Shown: in pieces, positions 201-23,300 of the stretch | How the letters are laid out: every line of letters begins with the position of its first letter | Position numbering within the stretch: position 1 is the first letter of the stretch | Virus record (IMG/VR): IMGVR_UViG_3300014205_000008 | Span: 1-64,000 of that record | DNA length: 64,000 bases | From: a virus | Taxonomy: Duplodnaviria > Caudoviricetes | Strand: one strand, 5' to 3' | Made by a program: the position numbers and the translations under genes | Notes under the pieces: model-generated | The model's input: only the letters and a program-made list of their open reading frames with translations | Told to the model about the DNA's origin: nothing | Databases searched by the model: none

Positions 201-815
201 ATGAATGAAGATGTTCCTATTCTAATTAGTTTAAAAAAACTTTTAGAATATAAATTAGCCTGTGAAGATTATATATTTTTATATCTTCTTTATATTGGCG
301 AAAGGTGGAAATTAAGTAAATATTTAACAGAAGTAAAAAACATTAATGCGCAAAAATATCTCAAACTAATTGAGTCAGGTATGGTTGAGAAAATCAACCC
401 ACACATTAGTACTATTTCTCTAAATAATCTTAATACCACTCAAAAGTTTAAGGACATTATTGAAGGAATAAATAACGAACAAAAAATTGAAAATTGGATA
501 GAAAAATGGTATGCTTTGTGGCCTCCTGGTATTAAAACTGGTGGATATTATCTTAAAACAGATAAAACAGGATCTTTAAGAAAAATGAAGAGATTTGTTG
601 TAAAATATCCTGAATATACACAAGAAGATATTATGCAGGCTACAGAGAACTATTTAAGAGAACAATCAATAAAAGGTTATTCTTTTACTAAACTTGCTCC
701 ATACTTCATTGAAAAAGACGGCTTATCTGTCTTGGCAGGAGAGTGTGAAGCGGTTAAAGAAAAAGCAACTCAAGTAATTATGAAAGGAGACATGTATGGA
801 AATGAAGAGCTATGA
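201..815 (+). CDS. Hypothetical protein upstream of DnaB (possible replication initiator or helicase loader)
   Basis: 204-aa ORF overlapping the dnaB start; function inferred from position only. Confidence 0.55.
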   Translation: MNEDVPILISLKKLLEYKLACEDYIFLYLLYIGERWKLSKYLTEVKNINAQKYLKLIESGMVEKINPHISTISLNNLNTTQKFKDIIEGINNEQKIENWIEKWYALWPPGIKTGGYYLKTDKTGSLRKMKRFVVKYPEYTQEDIMQATENYLREQSIKGYSFTKLAPYFIEKDGLSVLAGECEAVKEKATQVIMKGDMYGNEEL

Positions 816-1283
816 TCCTCTTAACATAATTACTCAAGGAGAGGCTATTGAAAGAGCTAATAAGAAGATTTATTTTAATATGCATAATAAATTTCCTGGA
901 TTAGTAACTAGATGGCTTAAAATAAATAGAGCTCTTGGAGGTGCTTTTAGATTTGGAGAGATTACTTATATAAGTGGTCCTTCTGGCTCTGGAAAATCGT
1001 ATTTACTAAATATGATAAGAGAAGATTTTGCTGGAGACTTAAATAAAAGTTATCCAAATAAATTTAAAATATTAGCATTATCTTTTGAGATGGGAGCTGA
1101 AGACGAAGTTATTAGAACTTATAGTAGTTCTTTAAATACTAGTTACAGCTTACTTGTATCGGCAAATGAAAAAATTACTAAGGAATATTATAAAATTATT
1201 GAGGAAACTTCAAAAAAACTTAATAACAACAAAATATTTTATGTAGAAACAACTGGGAATAGAAAACGAATACTTTCTACCGT
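796..1283 (+). CDS. dnaB: DnaB-like replicative helicase, exon 1
   Basis: TRWLKINRALGG, Walker A GPSGSGKS, SFEM motif; unspliced frame stops at TAA 1288-1290 inside the intron P1 loop. Confidence 0.92.
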
Positions 1284-1362
1284 AAACTAAATCTGCGGCT
1301 TTATACAGTAATGTATATAGAAAATTCCGAATAACGGGGAAACCCTTTTTTAAAATTAAAAT

Positions 1363-1983
1363 ATGTACGTAACTTATAAAACATACAAAGATAATAAATT
1401 AATAGATAATTACAAAAACACATCTTGTTTTAGTGAATTGTTTAATAATCAATGGGATAAAATGGAATTATTACTTTATGAGTCTTCACTAAGTAAAGGA
1501 CAATTAAAATTTTGGTTTGATTTTGTAAAAAAGATTGAACCTAAAATTAAACTTAGAGAAGATAATTATTGTATAATTCCGTATCAAGGTAAAGGTAAAA
1601 CACTAACGTTAGTTACAATATTAAGATTCCTTTGGGAAGATATAAATCATTATGATACTATTATCCCTTTAACAAAAGAAGTTATTAAACTAGTTCCTGA
1701 TATTGATGAAATGGGGGCAGTAGTTCTTGCTTCAAGTATAACTCATGAGTGCGACGGATGGGGACATTCATTAGTTAATGCAGTTGCCACTAAGATACCA
1801 AGAAAATGGCACTATAGAAGGTATAAAGGAAATTCTATTTTTGGTCTTACAGCTTTAAATGATCATGATAGTTCCTCTTATAAAAATAGATGGCTTCTTA
1901 ATAGATTAAGAACTCAAAAAGAAACTCCTTTAGATGTTAAACCTATACTTAAACATTTTAATATTCCATACAATGAACAATAA
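1363..1983 (+). CDS. Hypothetical protein (intron cargo, loop L5)
   Basis: 206-aa ORF with A-rich leader, between P5 strands (1344-1350 / 1988-1995); no LAGLIDADG, GIY-YIG or HNH motif. Confidence 0.8.
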   Translation: MYVTYKTYKDNKLIDNYKNTSCFSELFNNQWDKMELLLYESSLSKGQLKFWFDFVKKIEPKIKLREDNYCIIPYQGKGKTLTLVTILRFLWEDINHYDTIIPLTKEVIKLVPDIDEMGAVVLASSITHECDGWGHSLVNAVATKIPRKWHYRRYKGNSIFGLTALNDHDSSSYKNRWLLNRLRTQKETPLDVKPILKHFNIPYNEQ

Positions 1984-2122
1984 TAATAAAGAAGGCAATC
2001 CCGTGACGTTACTTAGTAATGAAGAGAATGAATATTTAGTATTATTATTAAAAGATCAAATTATATATGGTCTGTTTGATAATGATGAAGAATATGAACT
2101 TGCAAAAAAATATTCTTCTTAA
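1973..2122 (+). CDS. Small ORF overprinting P5'/P4'/P6 and loop L6 of the intron
   Basis: ATG 1973 overlaps the end of the previous ORF; MNNNNKEGNPVT...; may join 2067-2336 through the A7 run at 2104-2110. Confidence 0.45.
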   Translation: MNNNNKEGNPVTLLSNEENEYLVLLLKDQIIYGLFDNDEEYELAKKYSS

Positions 2123-2336
2123 ATTACAATACGTCCGAACGACTGACAAGGAGCAACCTACCTATTATGAATTAGATAAATGGTTTGAAGGACAAAGAAC
2201 TGCAACAGTCTATGAAAAACCAATAGGTAAATTCTTTGGAACAAAACTTAAAACTAAAGTATTACAATTAAGTGGTATGGAGGTTGTTTTGTTTGAAGAT
2301 GGTACATATACTTTATCTGATACAACAGGAGGCTGA
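2067..2336 (+). CDS. Small ORF crossing P6'/P7/P3' and filling loop L8 of the intron
   Basis: Open frame ending TGA 2334-2336 at the P8 3' strand; true start uncertain. Confidence 0.55.
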   Translation: MVCLIMMKNMNLQKNILLKLQYVRTTDKEQPTYYELDKWFEGQRTATVYEKPIGKFFGTKLKTKVLQLSGMEVVLFEDGTYTLSDTTGG

Positions 2337-2368
2337 TGATACAGTCTGATCTATAAAAATAAAATTTA

Positions 2369-2704
2369 ATGAAAAAAGAAATAATAGAGTATTTTAACTC
2401 AAAACAATTAAAGGTTTTAGATGTTAATCCAGGAGGATATAATAAATCTTTCTATACCGGTGTAACTGTAGGATATATTGCAAAATATGTTTGTCATACA
2501 ACACCAGGTAGAATTGTTAGGTTACTTTGGAAGATGCATCAAAATGGTGAATTAAGAGCATTGTTCTGCGGAACAGTCAACGAACCCGTTTTTGAATCAG
2601 CAACTTTCCCTACTAATCATTGGAATTATGAAAAAGGTAATTGGGGTGCAGACATTAATGATCTTAAAAAACATTTAGAATCTTTCGTTAAAACTAAATT
2701 ATAG
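2369..2704 (+). CDS. Hypothetical protein (intron cargo, loop L9; possibly winged-helix-like)
   Basis: 111-aa ORF between P9 strands TCTATAA(2350-56)/TTATAGA(2699-2705). Confidence 0.75.
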   Translation: MKKEIIEYFNSKQLKVLDVNPGGYNKSFYTGVTVGYIAKYVCHTTPGRIVRLLWKMHQNGELRALFCGTVNEPVFESATFPTNHWNYEKGNWGADINDLKKHLESFVKTKL

Positions 2705-2758
2705 AGTTTAGCAGAAATGACTAAGCCTCTTTTGTAATAAATAATAAAAAATAATATT

Positions 2759-2980
2759 ATGTCTAAAATTTTAAAGCTAACCGTAAAACAACTTACGAAT
2801 TTAATAGGATCTTATGTAATAATGAGAAAACCTACATCAACGATTACCAAAAACAAAAGATATATTGTAAAAAATATTCAATTTTATTCTTATACAAAAA
2901 AGAAAAATTCTATTCTTACAATTATTAATGATTTTGGTAAAGTTATTTCAATTCGTGAAGATAGAATTACAATTGAGTAA
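2759..2980 (+). CDS. Small basic hypothetical protein (intron cargo, loop L9.2)
   Basis: 73-aa ORF between P9.2 strands CTCTTTTGTAAT(2727-38)/ATTACAATTGAG(2966-77). Confidence 0.7.
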   Translation: MSKILKLTVKQLTNLIGSYVIMRKPTSTITKNKRYIVKNIQFYSYTKKKNSILTIINDFGKVISIREDRITIE

Positions 2981-2988
2981 CAAAAATG

Positions 2989-3475
2989 AGAAAAGTTTCA
3001 AAAAGATTATCCAGAACATAAATTAGTAGTTACAATAGATCACTCTTTACTAATGGAATATTTAGATGAAATTAGTGAGGTGGATCTTATAAATCAAATG
3101 TCACGTTTAGCTTTAGTACTTAAGAAAAAGTATGGAGCAATGGTAATAATGTTAGGTCAGTTAAATGATAAATTAGAACAACCAGAGCGATTAAAGACAC
3201 CACAATTACAATATCCGACTAAAACCGATATTCATGGTGGAAAATCTATATACGCAATCGCTGATACGGTAATAATTATTCATAGACCTGAACTATTAAA
3301 CCTGCAAACATATGGACCTAAATTTTATCCTACAAAGGATTTAATTGTGTTACATTTTTTGAAATCTAGATTAAACGGAAGTGAAGGTGTTTTGAGAATG
3401 AGGCAAGATTTTAGTCATGGTACATTATTAATGTGGCAGGATGAAGTCAAAACTACTCAAGAAACGCTTTTTTAG
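2989..3475 (+). CDS. dnaB: DnaB-like replicative helicase, exon 2
   Basis: LVVTIDH (Walker B region), LGQLN, P..TDIHGG.SI...AD.V..IHRP, KSR; spliced product 324 aa. Confidence 0.92.
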
Positions 3476-4239: not shown

Positions 4240-4755
4240 ATGAGTAAAAAATTCGGATTTAGTGATGTTGAAGAAGTAAAGTCAAGAATTGAACCTGGTG
4301 TTGAAGAAGTTGAATTTACTGGCGTAGAATGGGGCGAAAATGATAATGGTAAAGCATTCATGTCAATTGGCATGGTTTCTTTATCAGGTAATCATGAACA
4401 TTCAGAACGTTTATATTTCTCTACCAAAAAAGGTGAGAAAATATCTCTTCAAAGAATTAAAACTATTCTAATGACTATATTAGGCGAAGAAAAAGCTAAT
4501 AAGGAGTATGATGTAGAAGGCCTTAATAAAATTCTTACTGGTAAACAGGCAAGAATTAAATTTATTGGTGAAGAATATGAAGGTGAAAATGGAATTAAAG
4601 TTAAAACCCAATTTGCGTTTGCAAACTTTATCGAAAATATTGATGTTTCTGCAGAAAATTCAAAATTACATTTTGACTCAAGCCGTAATATCAAATTACT
4701 TCCTCAATCTCCTAAGATGAAGGAAAAATCAAAGAAAGATGTCTTATTCGAGTAA
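4240..4755 (+). CDS. Putative single-stranded DNA-binding protein
   Basis: Follows the Sak4-like ATPase; beta-rich sequence typical of phage SSBs in this position. Confidence 0.55.
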   Translation: MSKKFGFSDVEEVKSRIEPGVEEVEFTGVEWGENDNGKAFMSIGMVSLSGNHEHSERLYFSTKKGEKISLQRIKTILMTILGEEKANKEYDVEGLNKILTGKQARIKFIGEEYEGENGIKVKTQFAFANFIENIDVSAENSKLHFDSSRNIKLLPQSPKMKEKSKKDVLFE

Positions 4756-6864: not shown

Positions 6865-7554
6865 ATGGAACAATTAAATCAATTAATTCTAGGAAGCATA
6901 CTTGGAGATGGTTATTTAGATAAAATAATAAATAACGGTAATTCAAGAATGACTTTTGGACATAGTGAAAGTCAATTAGAATATTTAAAATATAAAATGT
7001 CTATTTTTAATAAATATGATTTATTTAATAATAGTTTTTATAAAAATAAATCAATTTCAGAAAGATATAAAAATGGATATTGTATATCTTATCATACAAA
7101 AACTAAAAAAGATCCATTATTTAATACATATAGAAATGAATTTTATCCATTTGGAAAAAAGATTCTTACAAATAAAATATATGAATTAAATAATTTTAGA
7201 TTGGCAATTTGGTTTATGGATGATGGCAGTAATACTACAAGTAGTTATCAATTAAATTCTAATGGATTTAGTAGAAATGAATGTAATATATTACGAGATA
7301 TGTTATTTAAAAATTTTAATATAGAAACTTCATTATGGAAAACACATAATATTATATACATTAAATCTAAAAGTGCAGAATTATTTAAAAATTTAATTTC
7401 TGAATTTATAATAGATTCAATGACATATAAATTAAAAACCAAATATAAACATAAAAGAGTCCTGAATAAATCGGATAAATTGCTGGAAAACCCTGGAGAG
7501 GACAATCAGCAGCCTATCCAGAATCTAAATGGTTCTGGCGGGTTCAACGACTAG
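6865..7554 (+). mobile_element. LAGLIDADG homing endonuclease (intron-encoded)
   Basis: ILGSILGDGYL and LAIWFMDDGS motifs; likely start ATG 6865; C-terminus reads through the intron core. Confidence 0.9.
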
Positions 7555-7759
7555 ATATTGAAACTAAGAAGTGCTATACGCAGAGTGGTAGTGGAGTATA
7601 CTAAACCATACGAGCGCAGGTATACTCTCACTTCTTAGAATATAATATATCCACGAACATCCGACACCTTATGGTGATGATATAGTCTGGGCTGCAACCA
7701 TAACTTAAAAAAGAAATTGCAGAATCTAAAGATAAAGAACTTTAGAGATAACAAAACCG

Positions 7760-7948
7760 ATCGACAACTTCATCTTCTTGTACAGAAAAGTTATACACGA
7801 TGTATTAACTGCTCACGAAATGAATCATAAACCAATAATAATTGATGATTCAAAACTTTATTTAAGAGATATACCTACAAGGTTTTATCCAATAGATGAG
7901 GGAATAGAAAAGTTTTTACATATACAAATTTATTCATTAAATAATTAA
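7760..7948 (+). CDS. rusA: RusA-like resolvase, exon 2 (missed by the ORF track)
   Basis: IDNFIFLYRKVIHDVL...IIIDDS...; RusA DxDN..K..D..DD catalytic pattern; spliced product 196 aa. Confidence 0.85.
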   Translation: MDNFIFLYRKVIHDVLTAHEMNHKPIIIDDSKLYLRDIPTRFYPIDEGIEKFLHIQIYSLNN

Positions 7949-9288: not shown

Positions 9289-11895
9289 ATGAGCGAAAAC
9301 AATTTAACTGATTTTTTTATTAACACTTATGGATTTAAGTTAGAAAATGATTCAAAAGAAAAATTAGAAAAATTTTGTTTAGAATATTTTGGTGGAGATG
9401 AATTAGCTGCATCTGTATTTATTAATAAATATTCTGCAAAATATAACACTCCAACAGACATGCATGAAAGAATTGCCAATAATATACATCGTATTGAAAG
9501 TAAATATCCAAATCCTTTAAGTATTGATTATATTTTTTCTTTATTAGATAAATTTAAATATTTAATTCCTGGTGGTTCTGTAATGTTTGGATTGAATAAT
9601 TATAATATGCCTGTATCTTTAGGTAATTGTTTTGTAATTGGAGAAGAAAACGAAAAAGATTCTTATGGAACAATTATAAGACGTGATGAGGAACAAGTAC
9701 AGTTAATGAAGCGCAGAGGTGGCGTTGGCCAAGACCTTTCCTTCTTAAGAGGCAAAGGATCTCGTGTTAATAATGCAGCAAGAACCTCTACAGGTGTTGT
9801 TCCTTTCGCAGAGAGATATTCTAACTCTATAAAAGAAGTAGCTCAGGATGGCAGGAGAGGAGCTGGTATGCTTACTCTTAATATTACTCATCCAGATGCA
9901 TTAGATTTTATTAAAGCAAAAGCTAATACTGATAAAATTAATGGAGCTAATATTTCTTTAAAGATTGATGATTTTTTTATGAATTCTTTAAAAGAGGTAA
10001 ATGATATTTTTATTAAAAAAAAACTTTCTTTTGATGAGGCTAATGAAATAGCGGCTCCTTATTTTCGGAAAACATCGTCAGTATACGAACCCCGTTTTAA
10101 TAATGATTTTGTTTTTAATGAATTAATTAAAAATACTAGAAACTTTTCAGAACCTGGAATTTTATTTTGGGACAGGGTAGAAGAAGAAATTGATTCTATA
10201 CTTTATGATGAATTTTCTCCTGTATCTACAAATCCATGCGGAGAGTTACCCTTATCTCCTTACGAAAGTTGTAGACTAGCTTCATTAAATTTATACAGTT
10301 ATGTTGATAATCCATTTACAGAAGATGCTGAATTTAATTTTGACTTATTTGAAGACCATGTTATAAGTGCTCAACGAATAATGGATGATATTGTTGATTT
10401 AGAAATAGAGCAAATAAATATTATTCTTAGAAAATTAGGATCAGAAATAATTATTCCTAATTCTGAACAAGAAGATTTTTATACAGATGAAAAATATAAC
10501 GGAAGTATTGATGTTGAGATTTCATTATGGAAGAAGATTCTTTCTAAAACTGAAAGAGGTAGAAGAACTGGTTTAGGAATTACTGCTTTTGGAGATATGT
10601 TTGCTGCATTAGGAATTAAATATGATTCTAATGATGGTATATTTATGGCTGAAAATATATTTTCTTTAATGTTAAAGAATTCTTATAAGTCATCTATTAT
10701 AATGGCAAAAGAAAGAGGTTTTTTCCCGGCTTATAATGGCGGTGAACTTGTTAATAAAGATTTCCAAGTCAAAATGATTGATACGTTAAAAACATTATTT
10801 CATAATGAACCAGAAATTATAGAAATGTGGAAAATTTATGGAAGAAGAAATATCCAAAATCTTGCAATAGCCCCTACCGGTAGTATTAGTATTATGACTC
10901 AAACTACTTCAGGAATAGAGCCCGTGTTCAACTTAAGATATAAAAGACGTAAGAGAGTTAATGGAGAAGTTGATAAATCATCCAAAAAAGAAATTATTAC
11001 AGATGATAATGGAACTTGGGAGCTCTTTAATGTAACTCATCCTAAATTTAAAACTTGGTACAAGATTAAATATCCTGATAGGAAGCCAGATTCTCTTGAT
11101 TCTATGCCTGAAGAGTTATTTAAAGAAATAGTAAAAGAAAGTCCTTATTTTGAGTCTTCAGCACATGAAATTGATCCTATTAAAAAGATTACCTTACAAT
11201 CTATTGCACAGAAATATATTGATGGTGCTATTAGCATAACGCATAACTTACCAGAAGATGTAACAGAAGAGCAGGTTAAAAAACTTGCTTTGTACGCATG
11301 GGAAACTGGTTGTAAAGGATTTACTATATATCGTGATAATTCAAGAGGTGGTATTCTTATTAAAGATAAGAAACCGGCTTTTGAGAAGAACGATGCCGCT
11401 CAAAGACCGGAATCTATTGATTGTGATGTTCATCAAACTTCTATAAAAGGAGAATTATGGACTGTATTAATAGGTACAATAAATAAATCACCCTATGAGA
11501 TTTTTGCATTTAAATCAAATAACAACGCTAAACTACCATCTGGTGAAGGATATAAGTTGTCTAAAATTAAAAGTAAACAATATTCTCTTACTAAAAACGG
11601 TGAAGATGTAATTAGCAATATACTTGATTATTTTGATGCTCCAGAAGAAGAGTTTATAACTCGACTTATGAGTGGAGCTTTTAGACACGGGATGGATGTA
11701 TCATATGTCTATGAACAATTAGTTAAATCTAATGGATATGTAACTGATTTTTCTAAAGCAATAGCACGAATACTTAATAAATATGTTACTAAATCGCTTT
11801 CAAAAAAACAAGCGGAAACTTGCCCAGAGTGTGGTAATACTGTCGTCTTTTCTGGCGGTTGCGTCTCTTGCTCTTGTGGATGGTCTAAATGTTAG
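9289..11895 (+). CDS. nrdJ: Class II (adenosylcobalamin-dependent) ribonucleotide reductase
   Basis: NCFV, RGGVG, GRRGA, TNPCGE, IAPTGS, C-terminal CPECG..CVSCSCGWSKC zinc ribbon; no nrdB nearby. Confidence 0.93.
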   Translation: MSENNLTDFFINTYGFKLENDSKEKLEKFCLEYFGGDELAASVFINKYSAKYNTPTDMHERIANNIHRIESKYPNPLSIDYIFSLLDKFKYLIPGGSVMFGLNNYNMPVSLGNCFVIGEENEKDSYGTIIRRDEEQVQLMKRRGGVGQDLSFLRGKGSRVNNAARTSTGVVPFAERYSNSIKEVAQDGRRGAGMLTLNITHPDALDFIKAKANTDKINGANISLKIDDFFMNSLKEVNDIFIKKKLSFDEANEIAAPYFRKTSSVYEPRFNNDFVFNELIKNTRNFSEPGILFWDRVEEEIDSILYDEFSPVSTNPCGELPLSPYESCRLASLNLYSYVDNPFTEDAEFNFDLFEDHVISAQRIMDDIVDLEIEQINIILRKLGSEIIIPNSEQEDFYTDEKYNGSIDVEISLWKKILSKTERGRRTGLGITAFGDMFAALGIKYDSNDGIFMAENIFSLMLKNSYKSSIIMAKERGFFPAYNGGELVNKDFQVKMIDTLKTLFHNEPEIIEMWKIYGRRNIQNLAIAPTGSISIMTQTTSGIEPVFNLRYKRRKRVNGEVDKSSKKEIITDDNGTWELFNVTHPKFKTWYKIKYPDRKPDSLDSMPEELFKEIVKESPYFESSAHEIDPIKKITLQSIAQKYIDGAISITHNLPEDVTEEQVKKLALYAWETGCKGFTIYRDNSRGGILIKDKKPAFEKNDAAQRPESIDCDVHQTSIKGELWTVLIGTINKSPYEIFAFKSNNNAKLPSGEGYKLSKIKSKQYSLTKNGEDVISNILDYFDAPEEEFITRLMSGAFRHGMDVSYVYEQLVKSNGYVTDFSKAIARILNKYVTKSLSKKQAETCPECGNTVVFSGGCVSCSCGWSKC

Positions 11896-20398: not shown

Positions 20399-23300
20399 TT
20401 AAATTCCGCATTGCTTTAATGCATTTATAAGATCTTCCTCTGTAATTTCAGTAGAACCATTTTCAAGTTGTCTGTCTACTAAATTTTCAAAAGCATCAAT
20501 ATTTAATGTGTAAACATCTGCAGCTAAATTTTGATTAACCATTAAATCACTAAAAGATTTATTTAAAAGATTTGCTATATTAACGTTTCCTTCAAATAAT
20601 TTAACAATAGAATTAATTAATTTCTGTAATAAAGTAGAATTATCAACTTTTATATCAACAAGTTGTTTTATAAAATCTTTATTAGTTAATCCATAAGCTA
20701 AGAACTCACCTATATCTTTAGCTTTAAAGAATTTAGGATTTGATTTGTATAAACTTGAGTTCTTGTATAGATTATATAATTCATTGGCTTCTTTTACAAA
20801 TGTTTGTTCTGGTTTAGTTAGAGGTAATATTGCTCCATTAGCAGCCCACTCATTAGATGTGTTTACCATATAGTTTAAATACCTATGTATTTCTTCATGT
20901 ATGATAATCTCATCTTTTGAAAATTCATTAAAGATAGTGTCATTAATTATAGTTCTAATATTTGATTCTATAATTCCTTCTTTAGATACCGTATTTTCAT
21001 TTAAGGTAACTCCTTGATATGGAGAATCTCTATCAATATTTATACGGTTACGTAAAGAAGAAACTCTATTGAGTAACAAGTCTGCTATAGGAGCTAATCT
21101 GCCATGAGCATTTGATACTTTAGTAAGTTCTTCACGAACACTTAAATCTTCAAAATTTTTGTAGTTAGGAAAGTTAATATACTTCTCCTCCTCTCCAATA
21201 TTTCCTAAAATCGTAGGTGGTTCACTAACAAGCTCAACAGAATACTTCTTATAGGCTTTACCGTCTTTCGTTTTGTTAGATGCTCCTTTAACTTTATAAA
21301 AGTATTTATCTTGTCTAGCTGGGTCCGCAAATGCAGTTAAACTAATCGTAGAACCTATTCTTAAATCATAATTAGTATTGGATAAAGCTTCATTACCTTC
21401 TTCTGGTCTACCAACAGTTATGTTTCTAATATCAGGTCTAAAGGCTTCATTCATTTTATAAGAGAATTCGTTTCCGCTTTTCCCTACAGAATAAATATTC
21501 TTTATACCTTGTCTAGCAACTTTCTGATAGTACATCATCCCAGTTTCAGGATCAGTATGTGTTTGTACATATACATCTACATAAGTATTTCCTGTCTTAG
21601 AAGTTTTTTCTCCACTTCTTACAAATTTAGGGAAGTCTTTATTAGTTTTTCTTACATCAATCTTACCTTCAGCATCACGTCTAGGTTCAGAAGAAAAGTT
21701 AGCAAAGATTGATTCATTATCAATAATATACATTTTGTATATGTTTTTTTCATCTATTTTTACTTTATCTACACTAGGAATAAAAGGTAACGAAGATGCG
21801 TTGTTAACAGAAACTTGAACTTCAAATAAATTTGATAATTCTTTAAGTTTAGTTTTATTAGCTAATACATTATCCATTAAATATTCAAATTGTATATGGA
21901 AGATTTTCATCATTCTCAAAGGAAGTACTTCGGCGTAGTTATTCTTACTATGAACTAATCCTTGCTCAAGAATTAAGTATCTCATAAAATCCTTCTGGAT
22001 CTTACTCAATTCCATAGTATACTTACTATTACCTAATTTATCTTTCTTAACAATTTTACCATTTACAACTTCATAATATAAAAGTTTATCAAAAGCATTT
22101 TCATAATCTATAATATCCTCGTAATCCATACTTGACGCAGGCGCAAAGTTTATAACTTTTTTTGCGTTAGCTCCATTACCCAATGATATTCCTGATACAA
22201 AAAGATTATCTTTGGTTGCTGGATTATTTTTCAATAAACTAACCGACTCAAACATTCTATCTAAAAAGGCATATTCTCCTTTGAGAACATTCCCTTTAGA
22301 TGTTAATCTTTCTGGTTCAGAAGCAAATCCTTTATAGGCAGGGTCCCACTTAACAGAAGACAATAAGAACTTCATAAATTCTTCTGTCTTTTTCTGATCA
22401 TCTTCTTCAGGATCTTCAGCGTAAGAGATGTCTTTGTTTTTATAGACTTCTTTTACAGCAGTTTTAATTACTGGATTATATCTATAAAACATTTCTTCTA
22501 GCTTAGTATTTGTCTTCTCTAAAGCATCATAAGCAGCTTGTACGTGTGGTAACTCCTTAAAGAAGTTTTCTACATCAATAGGGAATGTGCTATCTTTACC
22601 AAATATATTATTCTTTGCATTAAGTATCTTTTCAATATCAAACTTTGTAACAGGGAATTGTTTTATAATACTTAGTACTTTAGAAATTTTTGATATAGCA
22701 TCACCAATATAAAGAGCCTTATTGAATAAGGTAAAGAATTCATATTGTTTATATACGTATTCTAATTCTTTTTCAGTAAGTTCTTTTTCATCTTTCTGTT
22801 TTTTAAATATATCTTCTAGTGATAATTCACTTCTGATACCAAATTCTCCAGTTAAATCTCTAGAGTTTATTCCTTCAGAAGGTTTTTCAATTATACCATT
22901 ACCTAATACAGATAGGAAAGATAATTTTAAATATTTCTGTCCCCTTCTACCTTTCTTGTTTAAGACTTCAGCAAACTCTTGTGAAAACAATTGTAGCGAA
23001 GTATCTAAATCAACTCCAAAACCTCTTAATGCTATAAAAGCTTTGATATTATCTTTTGTCATATTGACATTAGGTAAATCTTGCTCATTAACATTGTCGA
23101 TTGCAGAGTTAAGAAAAGCATCTTGGTCTTCCCATAATTTTTTATCTGATTGTAGTGTATCAAAATTTTGGTTATCTATAACAAAAGCTCTATTAATTTC
23201 TTCTGAAGATATAATCTTTGGATCACTACCGTCTTTTCCTGTACGCTGCATATAAGCTAATGATTTAATACCATTTGCAAATATACCTGTACCAGATAAA

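Follow-up and report, generated by a model that had tools for sequence, protein, structure and literature searches.

Cargo reading frames that end on the closing strands of ribozyme helices: a predicted group I intron in the helicase gene of a crAss-like phage

Why should the stop codons of small open reading frames (ORFs) in the loops of a phage intron coincide with the strands that close the helices of its ribozyme? The question is raised by a stretch of 64,000 nucleotides (nt), hereinafter the window, which is the first 64 kb of the 96,958-bp virus record IMGVR_UViG_3300014205_000008 (a crAss-like phage with direct terminal repeats; GC content 30.4%). The gene for its DnaB-like replicative helicase is interrupted by an intron with five ORFs (the cargo), and each of them stops in a closing strand or at most 8 nt away from it. 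This coincidence is genuine and is conserved in relatives; what sets the intron apart, however, is not its stops but the lack of any spare RNA. Judging by sequence, the intron probably belongs to a mobile group I family of crAss-like and related phages in which small translated genes fill the loops wall to wall and creep into the ribozyme core.

The genes concerned are as follows; loops and helices carry the usual group I numbering, and a prime marks the 3' strand of a helix.

796..1283, + strand, helicase exon 1: DnaB-like, Walker A motif GPSGSGKS; PHROG 19 'DnaB-like replicative helicase' at 2e-10; ends at U1283
1284..2988, + strand, predicted group I intron: 1,705 nt, 90% coding; omega-G at 2988
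1363-1983, + strand, L5 ORF: 206 amino acids (aa); leader 11 nt; TAA 1981-83, 4 nt before P5'
1973-2122, + strand, core ORF A: 49 aa; its AUG overlaps the end of the L5 ORF (AUGAACAAUAA); UAA 2120-22, 8 nt before P6'
2094..2336, + strand, core ORF B (the 'L8 ORF'): frame open from 2052; ATGs at 2067, 2082, 2085 and 2094; TGA 2334-36
2369-2704, + strand, L9 ORF: 111 aa; leader 12 nt; TAG 2702-04 inside P9' (2699-2705)
2759-2980, + strand, L9.2 ORF: 73 aa; leader 20 nt; reads across P9.2' (2966-77); TAA 2978-80
2989..3475, + strand, helicase exon 2: junction codon GU-A (Val), then EKFQKD...; Pfam DnaB_C at 1.2e-7

Stop triplets amount to 7.5% per codon at this composition, and a run-on frame ends after about 13 codons on average; as a rough guide, the chance of a stop within 4 codons is about 0.27 per ORF. 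Five stops at closing strands are thus not random termination. The coding share of the intron is 1,532 of 1,705 nt, and the non-coding rest consists of 79 + 32 + 54 + 8 nt, in a genome that is itself about 88% coding. The gaps between the intron ORFs (-11, overlap, 32 and 54 nt) can be set beside a genome median of 11 nt, with 69% of the gaps at 60 nt or less, and the 5' ends of the ORFs are as tight as their 3' ends (leaders of 11-20 nt). Considering the coding share, the genome-typical gaps and the tight starts, we believe that wall-to-wall packing together with creep into the core is the best reading, rather than a special stop signal.

The interrupted helicase gene and the ribozyme

The two halves of the helicase lie in ORF 796-1290 and ORF 3053-3475; both match PHROG 19 and the second also matches Pfam DnaB_C. 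The frame of exon 1 meets the in-frame stop UAA 1288-90 two codons into the intron. By tblastn both halves, at about 34% identity, fall on one and the same continuous 'DNA helicase' gene in crAss-like phages. The alignment to NC_055896.1 stops for exon 1 at residue 162 (position 20837) and resumes for exon 2 at residue 3 (position 20847), which leaves exactly 9 nt; in MT774382.1 the matches of exon 1 and exon 2 are 3 nt apart. Joining U1283 to A2989 gives one junction codon in frame and predicts gaps of three codons and of one codon. Since these are exactly the gaps found in the uninterrupted homologues, the intervening 1,705 nt (1284-2988) are an intron, and the host protein would be intact after its removal. 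A related contig, L001, has the same intron at the same site, its exon 2 being 73% identical to that of the window.

A DNA search of the phage collection with the window sequence gave no match. An independent groundwater metagenome contains a sequence identical to the window over 1128-1436, 1506-2210 and 2443-3098; consequently, the layout, including the run of seven A residues (A7) between the two core frames, is not an assembly artefact. Other short contigs in the source landfill metagenome and in the groundwater metagenome match only conserved RNA segments (1295-1343 and 2330-2390), which suggests that further members of the intron family co-occur in those samples. The phage has two ordinary tRNAs and uses TAA, TAG and TGA; stop-codon reassignment was rejected, there being no suppressor tRNA and a normal use of all three stop codons.

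Rfam RF00028 gave no match in the window at the gathering threshold or at E <= 10, which is expected because insertions of more than 1.4 kb split every domain. The structure was built by hand with the aid of covariation: helices were fixed by homology with related introns, using anchored pair tables over nine introns. The family was found by a scan of viral contigs for the P4 motif, which returned L031, L019, L036, L046, L042, L005 and L009 (the same as L053), as well as the more distant, ORF-poor L008, L012 and L017. Rfam gives a weak 22-bit group I match in L017 and otherwise misses the ORF-poor relatives, bar a separate intron in L005. The elements of the ribozyme in the window are listed below.

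1302-06/1313-17, + strand, P2 hairpin: non-coding; U-A becomes G-C in L001
1325-28, + strand, P3 5' strand UUCC: non-coding; closing pair C-G, U-A, U.G or A-U across the family
1334-38, + strand, P4 5' strand ACGGG: non-coding; P4 ACGGG/CCCGU is invariant
1344-51/1988-95, + strand, P5: non-coding 5' strand CCUUUUUU pairs with P5' AAAGAAGG
2000-04, + strand, P4': coding, within core ORF A
2005-09/2131-35, + strand, P6 5' strand and P6': GACGU/ACGUC in the window, GCCGU/ACGG(U/C) in most relatives
2141-45/2342-46, + strand, P7 5' strand and 3' strand CAGUC: GACUG/CAGUC versus GACUA/UAGUC across the family, compensatory
2150-53, + strand, P3': coding, within core ORF B
2154-59/2330-35, + strand, P8 CAACCU/AGGCUG: four different first pairs across the family
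2336-41, + strand, joining segment J8/7: AUGAUA
2350-56/2699-2705, + strand, P9: UCUAUAA/UUAUAGA
2706-11/2721-26, + strand, P9.1 hairpin GUUUAG/CUAAGC: conserved loop CAGAAAUGA; in the family GCUAG/CUAGC, AUUAAG/CUUAAU, GCCAAA/UUUGGC and others
2727-38/2966-77, + strand, P9.2: 5' strand CUCUUUUGUAAU and P9.2' AUUACAAUUGAG

In P1 the last four nucleotides of exon 1, CCGU (1280-83), pair with the guide GCGG (1295-98), with U1283.G1295 at the 5' splice site; the same holds in L001. For P10, UCU 1292-94 pairs with AGA 2989-91. The 3' end is omega-G2988 in the window, and seven relatives also end in ...UG. Compensatory changes are found in P3, P6, P7 and P8 across the nine introns, and P2, P9, P9.1 and P9.2 covary as well. 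This covariation supports a conserved group I core P3-P9 with the P3/P7 pseudoknot. The A.C mismatch of P8 (CAACCU/AGGCUG) occurs in the window and in L019; the other relatives have a perfect helix.

The reading frames as genes, and where they end

The chain of ORFs at 1973-2336 runs straight across P5'-P4'-P6-P7-P3'-P8: core ORF A reads through P5' (1988-95), P4' (2000-04) and the 5' strand of P6 (2005-09), and core ORF B reads through P6', J6/7, the 5' strand of P7, P3' and the 5' strand of P8. The TGA of core ORF B is divided between two elements: P8' ends with its U and G, and J8/7 begins with its A. The TAA of the L9.2 ORF sits in the conserved terminal motif UAACAAA, 8 nt before omega-G 2988. 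About 62 helix nucleotides are coding in total (P5', P4', P6, P6', P7, P3', P8, P8', P9' and P9.2'), and P3, P4, P5, P9 and P9.2 have the 5' strand in a non-coding leader and the 3' strand in coding sequence. The initial annotation, which had placed the L5 stop just before P5', the L9 stop inside P9' (within UUAUAGA) and the L9.2 stop 8 nt before the 3' splice site after coding through P9.2', is borne out in these three points. Its 'L8 ORF' does stop in P8', save for the last A, but has no start inside L8. The A-rich leaders free of a Shine-Dalgarno (SD) motif that it had noticed just inside the 5' strands of L5, L9 and L9.2 do exist (45-68% A, 0-14% GC); they are, however, the norm of this genome, where leaders average 50% A and an SD-like 4-mer is found at 10% of starts.

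Initiation in Bacteroidetes is tuned by mRNA structure and upstream A residues and not by the SD motif (PMC6847099). The start regions of L5, core ORF A, L9 and L9.2 are unstructured, with minimum free energies of 0 to -3.3 kcal/mol and z scores of -0.3 to +1.8 against shuffles. TAnnTTTG, the -7 promoter motif of Bacteroidota, shows no enrichment in the window and is found upstream of none of the cargo starts; this is weak negative evidence, and it gives no sign of internal promoters.

One could object that the ORFs are chance untranslated frames in an AT-rich intron RNA, in which case the positions of their stops would mean nothing. Pfam and PHROGs indeed give no family for any cargo ORF of the window, nor for most of the cargo of relatives (the exception is a LAGLIDADG ORF in L005), and ORF A has only 49 aa. 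Against this, the chance of an open frame of 73-206 codons is 0.003 or less by composition. Codon-usage log-odds, computed with a model from the long genes of the phage, are 0.40-0.76 bits per codon for the five ORFs (L5 0.49; core ORF A 0.59-0.76; the L8 part of core ORF B 0.74), which equals the 0.47-0.62 of the exons, and off-frames are strongly negative. Protein homologues are also available for L5, L8, L9 and, weakly, L9.2. The L5 ORF is 53% identical to the L5 ORF of L001 and has two further homologues at 47-48%; a metagenome scan with the L5 protein alignment returned the L001 contig only. The L8 module shares 72% identity with the C-terminal part of P0049, which likewise ends in ...SGG before the stop, and both known copies of the module end in ...GG and the stop. 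The L9 family has 43 homologues among 1.84 billion cluster representatives, and the L9.2 ORF is weakly similar to its counterpart in L001. Considering also the identical sequence in the independent groundwater metagenome, we regard chance frames as highly improbable; all five ORFs look translated.

Foldseek found no PDB match for the L5 protein at E <= 0.001, using a poor AlphaFold model (pLDDT 58). Pfam and PHROG searches revealed no homing-endonuclease or recombinase family among the cargo ORFs of the window. The similarity of the core ORFs between the window and L001 is limited to RNA-conserved segments, so that it does not by itself demonstrate selection there at the protein level.

Between the two core frames there is a 9-bp hairpin (2087-95/2110-18; free energy -10 kcal/mol, z score -2.85) with the A7 run at 2104-10 in its loop. 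Only a +1 shift would lead from frame A (1973-2122) into frame B (up to 2336), and all relatives have a single ORF here; region 2012-2119 codes, by score, in frame A only, and the A7 run is identical in the independent metagenome. Either AUG 2094 is the start codon of core ORF B, or A and B are fused by slippage.

Related introns and the origin of the layout

The introns of the family interrupt genes of two helicase types and a third, apparently non-helicase gene (in L042), which indicates that the family is mobile. Across the nine introns, whose cargo is partly different, ORFs end at a few fixed places or, otherwise, where the following ORF of that loop begins; the conservation of stop positions relative to the helices, which the initial annotation had proposed to check in homologues, is thus observed at P5', P8'/J8-7/P7', P9' and UAACAAA. 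L5-type ORFs stop in P5' (UAAAG) in L001 and L009, where the start of the core ORF also overlaps the end of L5. Core ORFs stop in P8' in L001, L019, L046 and L009, in P7' in L031 and right after P7' in L042, whose core is coding throughout from P4 to P7'. In P9' one and the same UAG closes the L9 ORFs of the window, L036 and L046, which end in ...AAAUUAUAG; the terminal UAACAAA supplies with its UAA the stop of the last ORF in the window, L001, L005 and L009; and in six relatives an ORF stops in or next to the strand directly before P4 (UAAUUAGCUAAC).

The same triplets are found where there is no ORF to use them. P9 without an ORF (L001, L031, L019, L005 and L009) is a plain hairpin with a GUGA loop and keeps AUAGAG with its UAG; the L5 hairpins without an ORF in L008 and L012 keep the UAA in P5'; and L031 and L019 keep UAACAAA, although their ORFs stop elsewhere. 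The stop triplets therefore belong to the conserved RNA, independently of the ORFs. The 3' strand of P9.2 differs in sequence in each of seven relatives and always pairs with the non-coding segment after P9.1. In the window, L001, L005 and L009 this strand doubles as the last four or five codons of the final ORF, and the L031 ORF stops just before it. A protein tail and a non-coding strand genuinely co-vary here. The co-adaptation of ORFs and ribozyme suggested in the initial annotation thus holds in the sense that they share nucleotides and evolved together, as P9.2' demonstrates; the data give it no backing for the stops as a purpose-built device, considering that packing plus creep predicts the pattern and that the triplets are present in ORF-less loops.

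The extension of a loop-lodged ORF to the next in-frame stop, possibly in the core, is known as core creep (Edgell, Chalamcharla & Belfort 2011, PMC3073962). Its marks are found here: ORFs lie in loops with their stops in the core or in the closing helix, and the length of the extension varies between lineages (P8', P7', after P7', L9 leader). We presume that core creep would be driven by phage selection for compactness. Each loop keeps only an A-rich leader of 10-20 nt after the closing 5' strand, which is what a Bacteroidota-type ribosome would need for starting; there is no 3' untranslated stretch, each ORF running to the start of the next one or to the first in-frame stop in the 3' strand. 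The stops used are triplets of the ribozyme itself, namely UAAAG in P5', UAGGUUGAUGAGAUAGUC across P8'-J8/7-P7', UAUAGAG in P9' and UAACAAA near the 3' end. The unpaired joints and 5' strands of the ribozyme occupy what appear to be ordinary intergenic spacers, with the rest written in coding sequence; hence most of the long-range helices (P3, P4, P5, P9 and P9.2) have one non-coding and one coding strand.

Several observations weigh against this explanation. The alignment of the L9 protein with homologues of free-standing length extends to its last residues; this end has a native rather than a crept look, and flush insertion would account for it as well as creep does. A distant homology may link the L9 ORF of the window to those of L036/L046 (a weak hhalign match and a matching motif), in which case the shared stop could be inherited and not convergent. 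The fixed ends have exceptions: in L019 the last ORF continues for 35 nt in exon 2, and in L036 the core ORF extends into the L9 leader. The closure of all three frames within 24 nt downstream of P8', which was considered as a striking stop barrier and rejected, is only mildly unusual (P about 0.07). Finally, that each ORF is translated, and in what order the RNA is folded and translated, is inferred.

The native-looking C-terminus of L9 also speaks for another origin, in which ORFs recombine in at hairpin tips with short conserved flanks, flush from the start and with no later creep. By BLASTP the L9 ORF of the window is dissimilar to those of L036/L046, yet the flanks are common to them, with CUAUAAAAAUAAAA on the upstream side and AAAUUAUAGAG on the downstream side; the 5 bp at the base of P9 are kept in comparison with the ORF-less hairpins; and the cargo sets differ among otherwise similar introns. 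The common flanks could, however, reflect common descent if the L9 ORFs are distant homologues, the core ORF stops vary (P8', P7' and beyond) as creep predicts, and the window cargo includes no recombinase or endonuclease identified by Pfam or PHROG. We consider insertion of this kind unlikely as the explanation of the whole layout; it is a partial alternative to core creep.

Some further features of the relatives can be noted. L001 (at 4445-4735), L019, L036, L046, L005 and L009 have two extra hairpins between P3 and P4, the second of which holds an ORF of 96-185 aa with its stop in UAAUUAGCUAAC just before P4; both hairpins are missing in the window intron (UUCC-GAAUAA-CGGGG). A 99-aa protein (MKKTTTACCALCQ...) is 62-90% identical in five introns (L019 1477-1776, L036 1270-1569, L046, L005 and L009); it is the best-conserved cargo, has no Pfam family and may have a function connected with the intron as such. 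The LAGLIDADG_2 endonuclease ORF of L005 (1653-2276, minus strand; Pfam 3e-38) lies directly after the 5' strand of P7. L005 and L046 have a separate upstream intron with a GIY-YIG-like ORF of 253 aa (Rfam Intron_gpI at L005 7002-7233, minus strand). L046, at 7551-7850 in its oriented form, has a P5'-P4'...P7 core segment that is partly duplicated in tandem, with two Q-like motifs and two R-like ones, all within one ORF of 150 aa. In L031 there is an Rfam tmRNA match of 58 bits (9765-10142, minus strand) a few kb from the intron-bearing helicase.

Translation, splicing and known systems

A ribosome unwinds mRNA to about +11 from the first base of the P site, and its 3' edge lies near +15. With such dimensions, a ribosome terminating at 1981-83 would open 2-6 of the 8 pairs of P5; at 2334-36 it would already be through P8' and would reach P7'; at 2702-04 it would open P9 and the 5' strand of P9.1; and at 2978-80 it would cover omega-G and the 3' splice site. 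Elongation through 1973-2336 would unfold the P4-P6 and P3-P7-P8 core outright. The claim of the initial annotation that terminating ribosomes would melt the helices (P5, P7/P8, P9/P9.1 and P9.2) agrees with these established footprint sizes. Considering that translating ribosomes must open the helices of the ribozyme, translation and folding or splicing would be mutually exclusive on one RNA, and for a single molecule this would be close to a physical necessity.

Any RNA would then be a ribozyme or a messenger at a given moment, and the likeliest resolution would be a kinetic partition. RNAs that fold first would splice to give the helicase mRNA and the excised intron, which would then be translatable; heavy ribosome loading would lower the splicing yield. 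It is tempting to go further and to propose an RNA with two states, a five-gene polycistronic messenger or a ribozyme, in which translation of the cargo, through re-initiation coupled from L5 into the P4-P6 strands, would set the spliceable fraction and gate the supply of helicase, the cargo itself being made mainly from the excised intron. We consider this proposal fairly unlikely.

Another reading, along the lines of the initial annotation, is that of an evolved switch, with stops placed on the 3' strands so that translation of the cargo would throttle splicing of the helicase and set the time at which phage DNA replication begins. No helix domain is left untouched by the ORFs, and a ribosome at the last stop would sit over omega-G. 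The core ORF start overlaps the L5 stop in several relatives, so that ribosomes finishing L5 could re-initiate straight into P5'-P4'. The arrangement is also kept in relatives that interrupt two helicase types, and the host gene is a replication helicase. On the other side, the same layout occurs in L042 in a different, apparently non-helicase gene, which means that the layout travels with the intron and not with the replication function. Moreover, the stop triplets pre-exist in loops without ORFs, the pattern is fully predicted by compaction, and the start regions that were folded contain no dedicated control element such as a start-masking hairpin. For these reasons we find such a switch quite unlikely. 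That cargo translation times replication is possible, with the identity of the host gene as its sole support.

Coding sequence through or within a ribozyme, and more than one gene per intron, are familiar from mitochondrial group I introns: fungal ORFs are fused to the upstream exon, and the hexacoral ND5 intron carries ND1/ND3. Those introns are organellar, belong to other translation systems and are without the compact operon-like layout of the window.

The closest phage parallel, and an experimental precedent for the mutual exclusion of translation and folding, is the td intron of T4 with its I-TevI ORF, in which the final 20 nt of the ORF contribute to P6a and P7, and a ribosome sitting on them leads to a splicing defect (Gibb & Edgell 2010, Mol Microbiol 78:35; PMC3073962). 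Both are phage group I introns in a gene of DNA metabolism, both have an in-frame stop just after the 5' splice site, and in both the 3' ends of ORFs share nucleotides with helices required for splicing. The differences are equally clear. The td intron has one ORF, a GIY-YIG homing endonuclease in one loop, whereas the window has five, in L5, L6, L8, L9 and L9.2, none of them a recognisable endonuclease. In td a hairpin masks the ribosome-binding site and delays translation; in the window there is no such hairpin and the start regions are open. The Bacteroidota-type SD-less leaders and a chain of ORFs across the whole P4-P8 core also set the window apart from td.

Overlaps of 9-81 nt between ORF and core have been tabulated (PMC3073962, Table 1), among them the large-subunit (LSU) intron of Synechococcus lividus with 81 nt (P6/P7/P3/P8/P9.0/P9) and the nrdF intron of B. 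thuringiensis with 56 nt. In those cases, as in the window family, an ORF that begins in a loop is closed by an in-frame stop in the core helices, and the length of overlap varies; however, those are single endonuclease ORFs, whereas here there are several ORFs per intron, each ending on a different helix. In some crAss-like groups, group I introns are frequent in core replication and structural genes (Yutin et al. 2021, PMC7886860). Those introns are from the same virus order as the window and were recognised through endonuclease domains; multi-ORF cargo introns without an endonuclease, or relations of ORFs to helices, are not described in the passages of that study considered here.

The overlap of an ORF with the core and the interference of ribosomes with splicing are textbook matters for phage introns with a single endonuclease; here they take an extreme multi-gene form, in which the ribozyme is built largely from intergenic spacers of normal length and coding sequence. 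Since such introns lack an endonuclease domain and escape Rfam, caution is needed in annotating crAss-like genomes. The layout is also a natural test bed for the sharing of sequence by a ribozyme and an operon, with five starts and five stops that can be mutated independently. If it is true that translation limits the splicing of the helicase, this would be a new layer in the control of phage replication.

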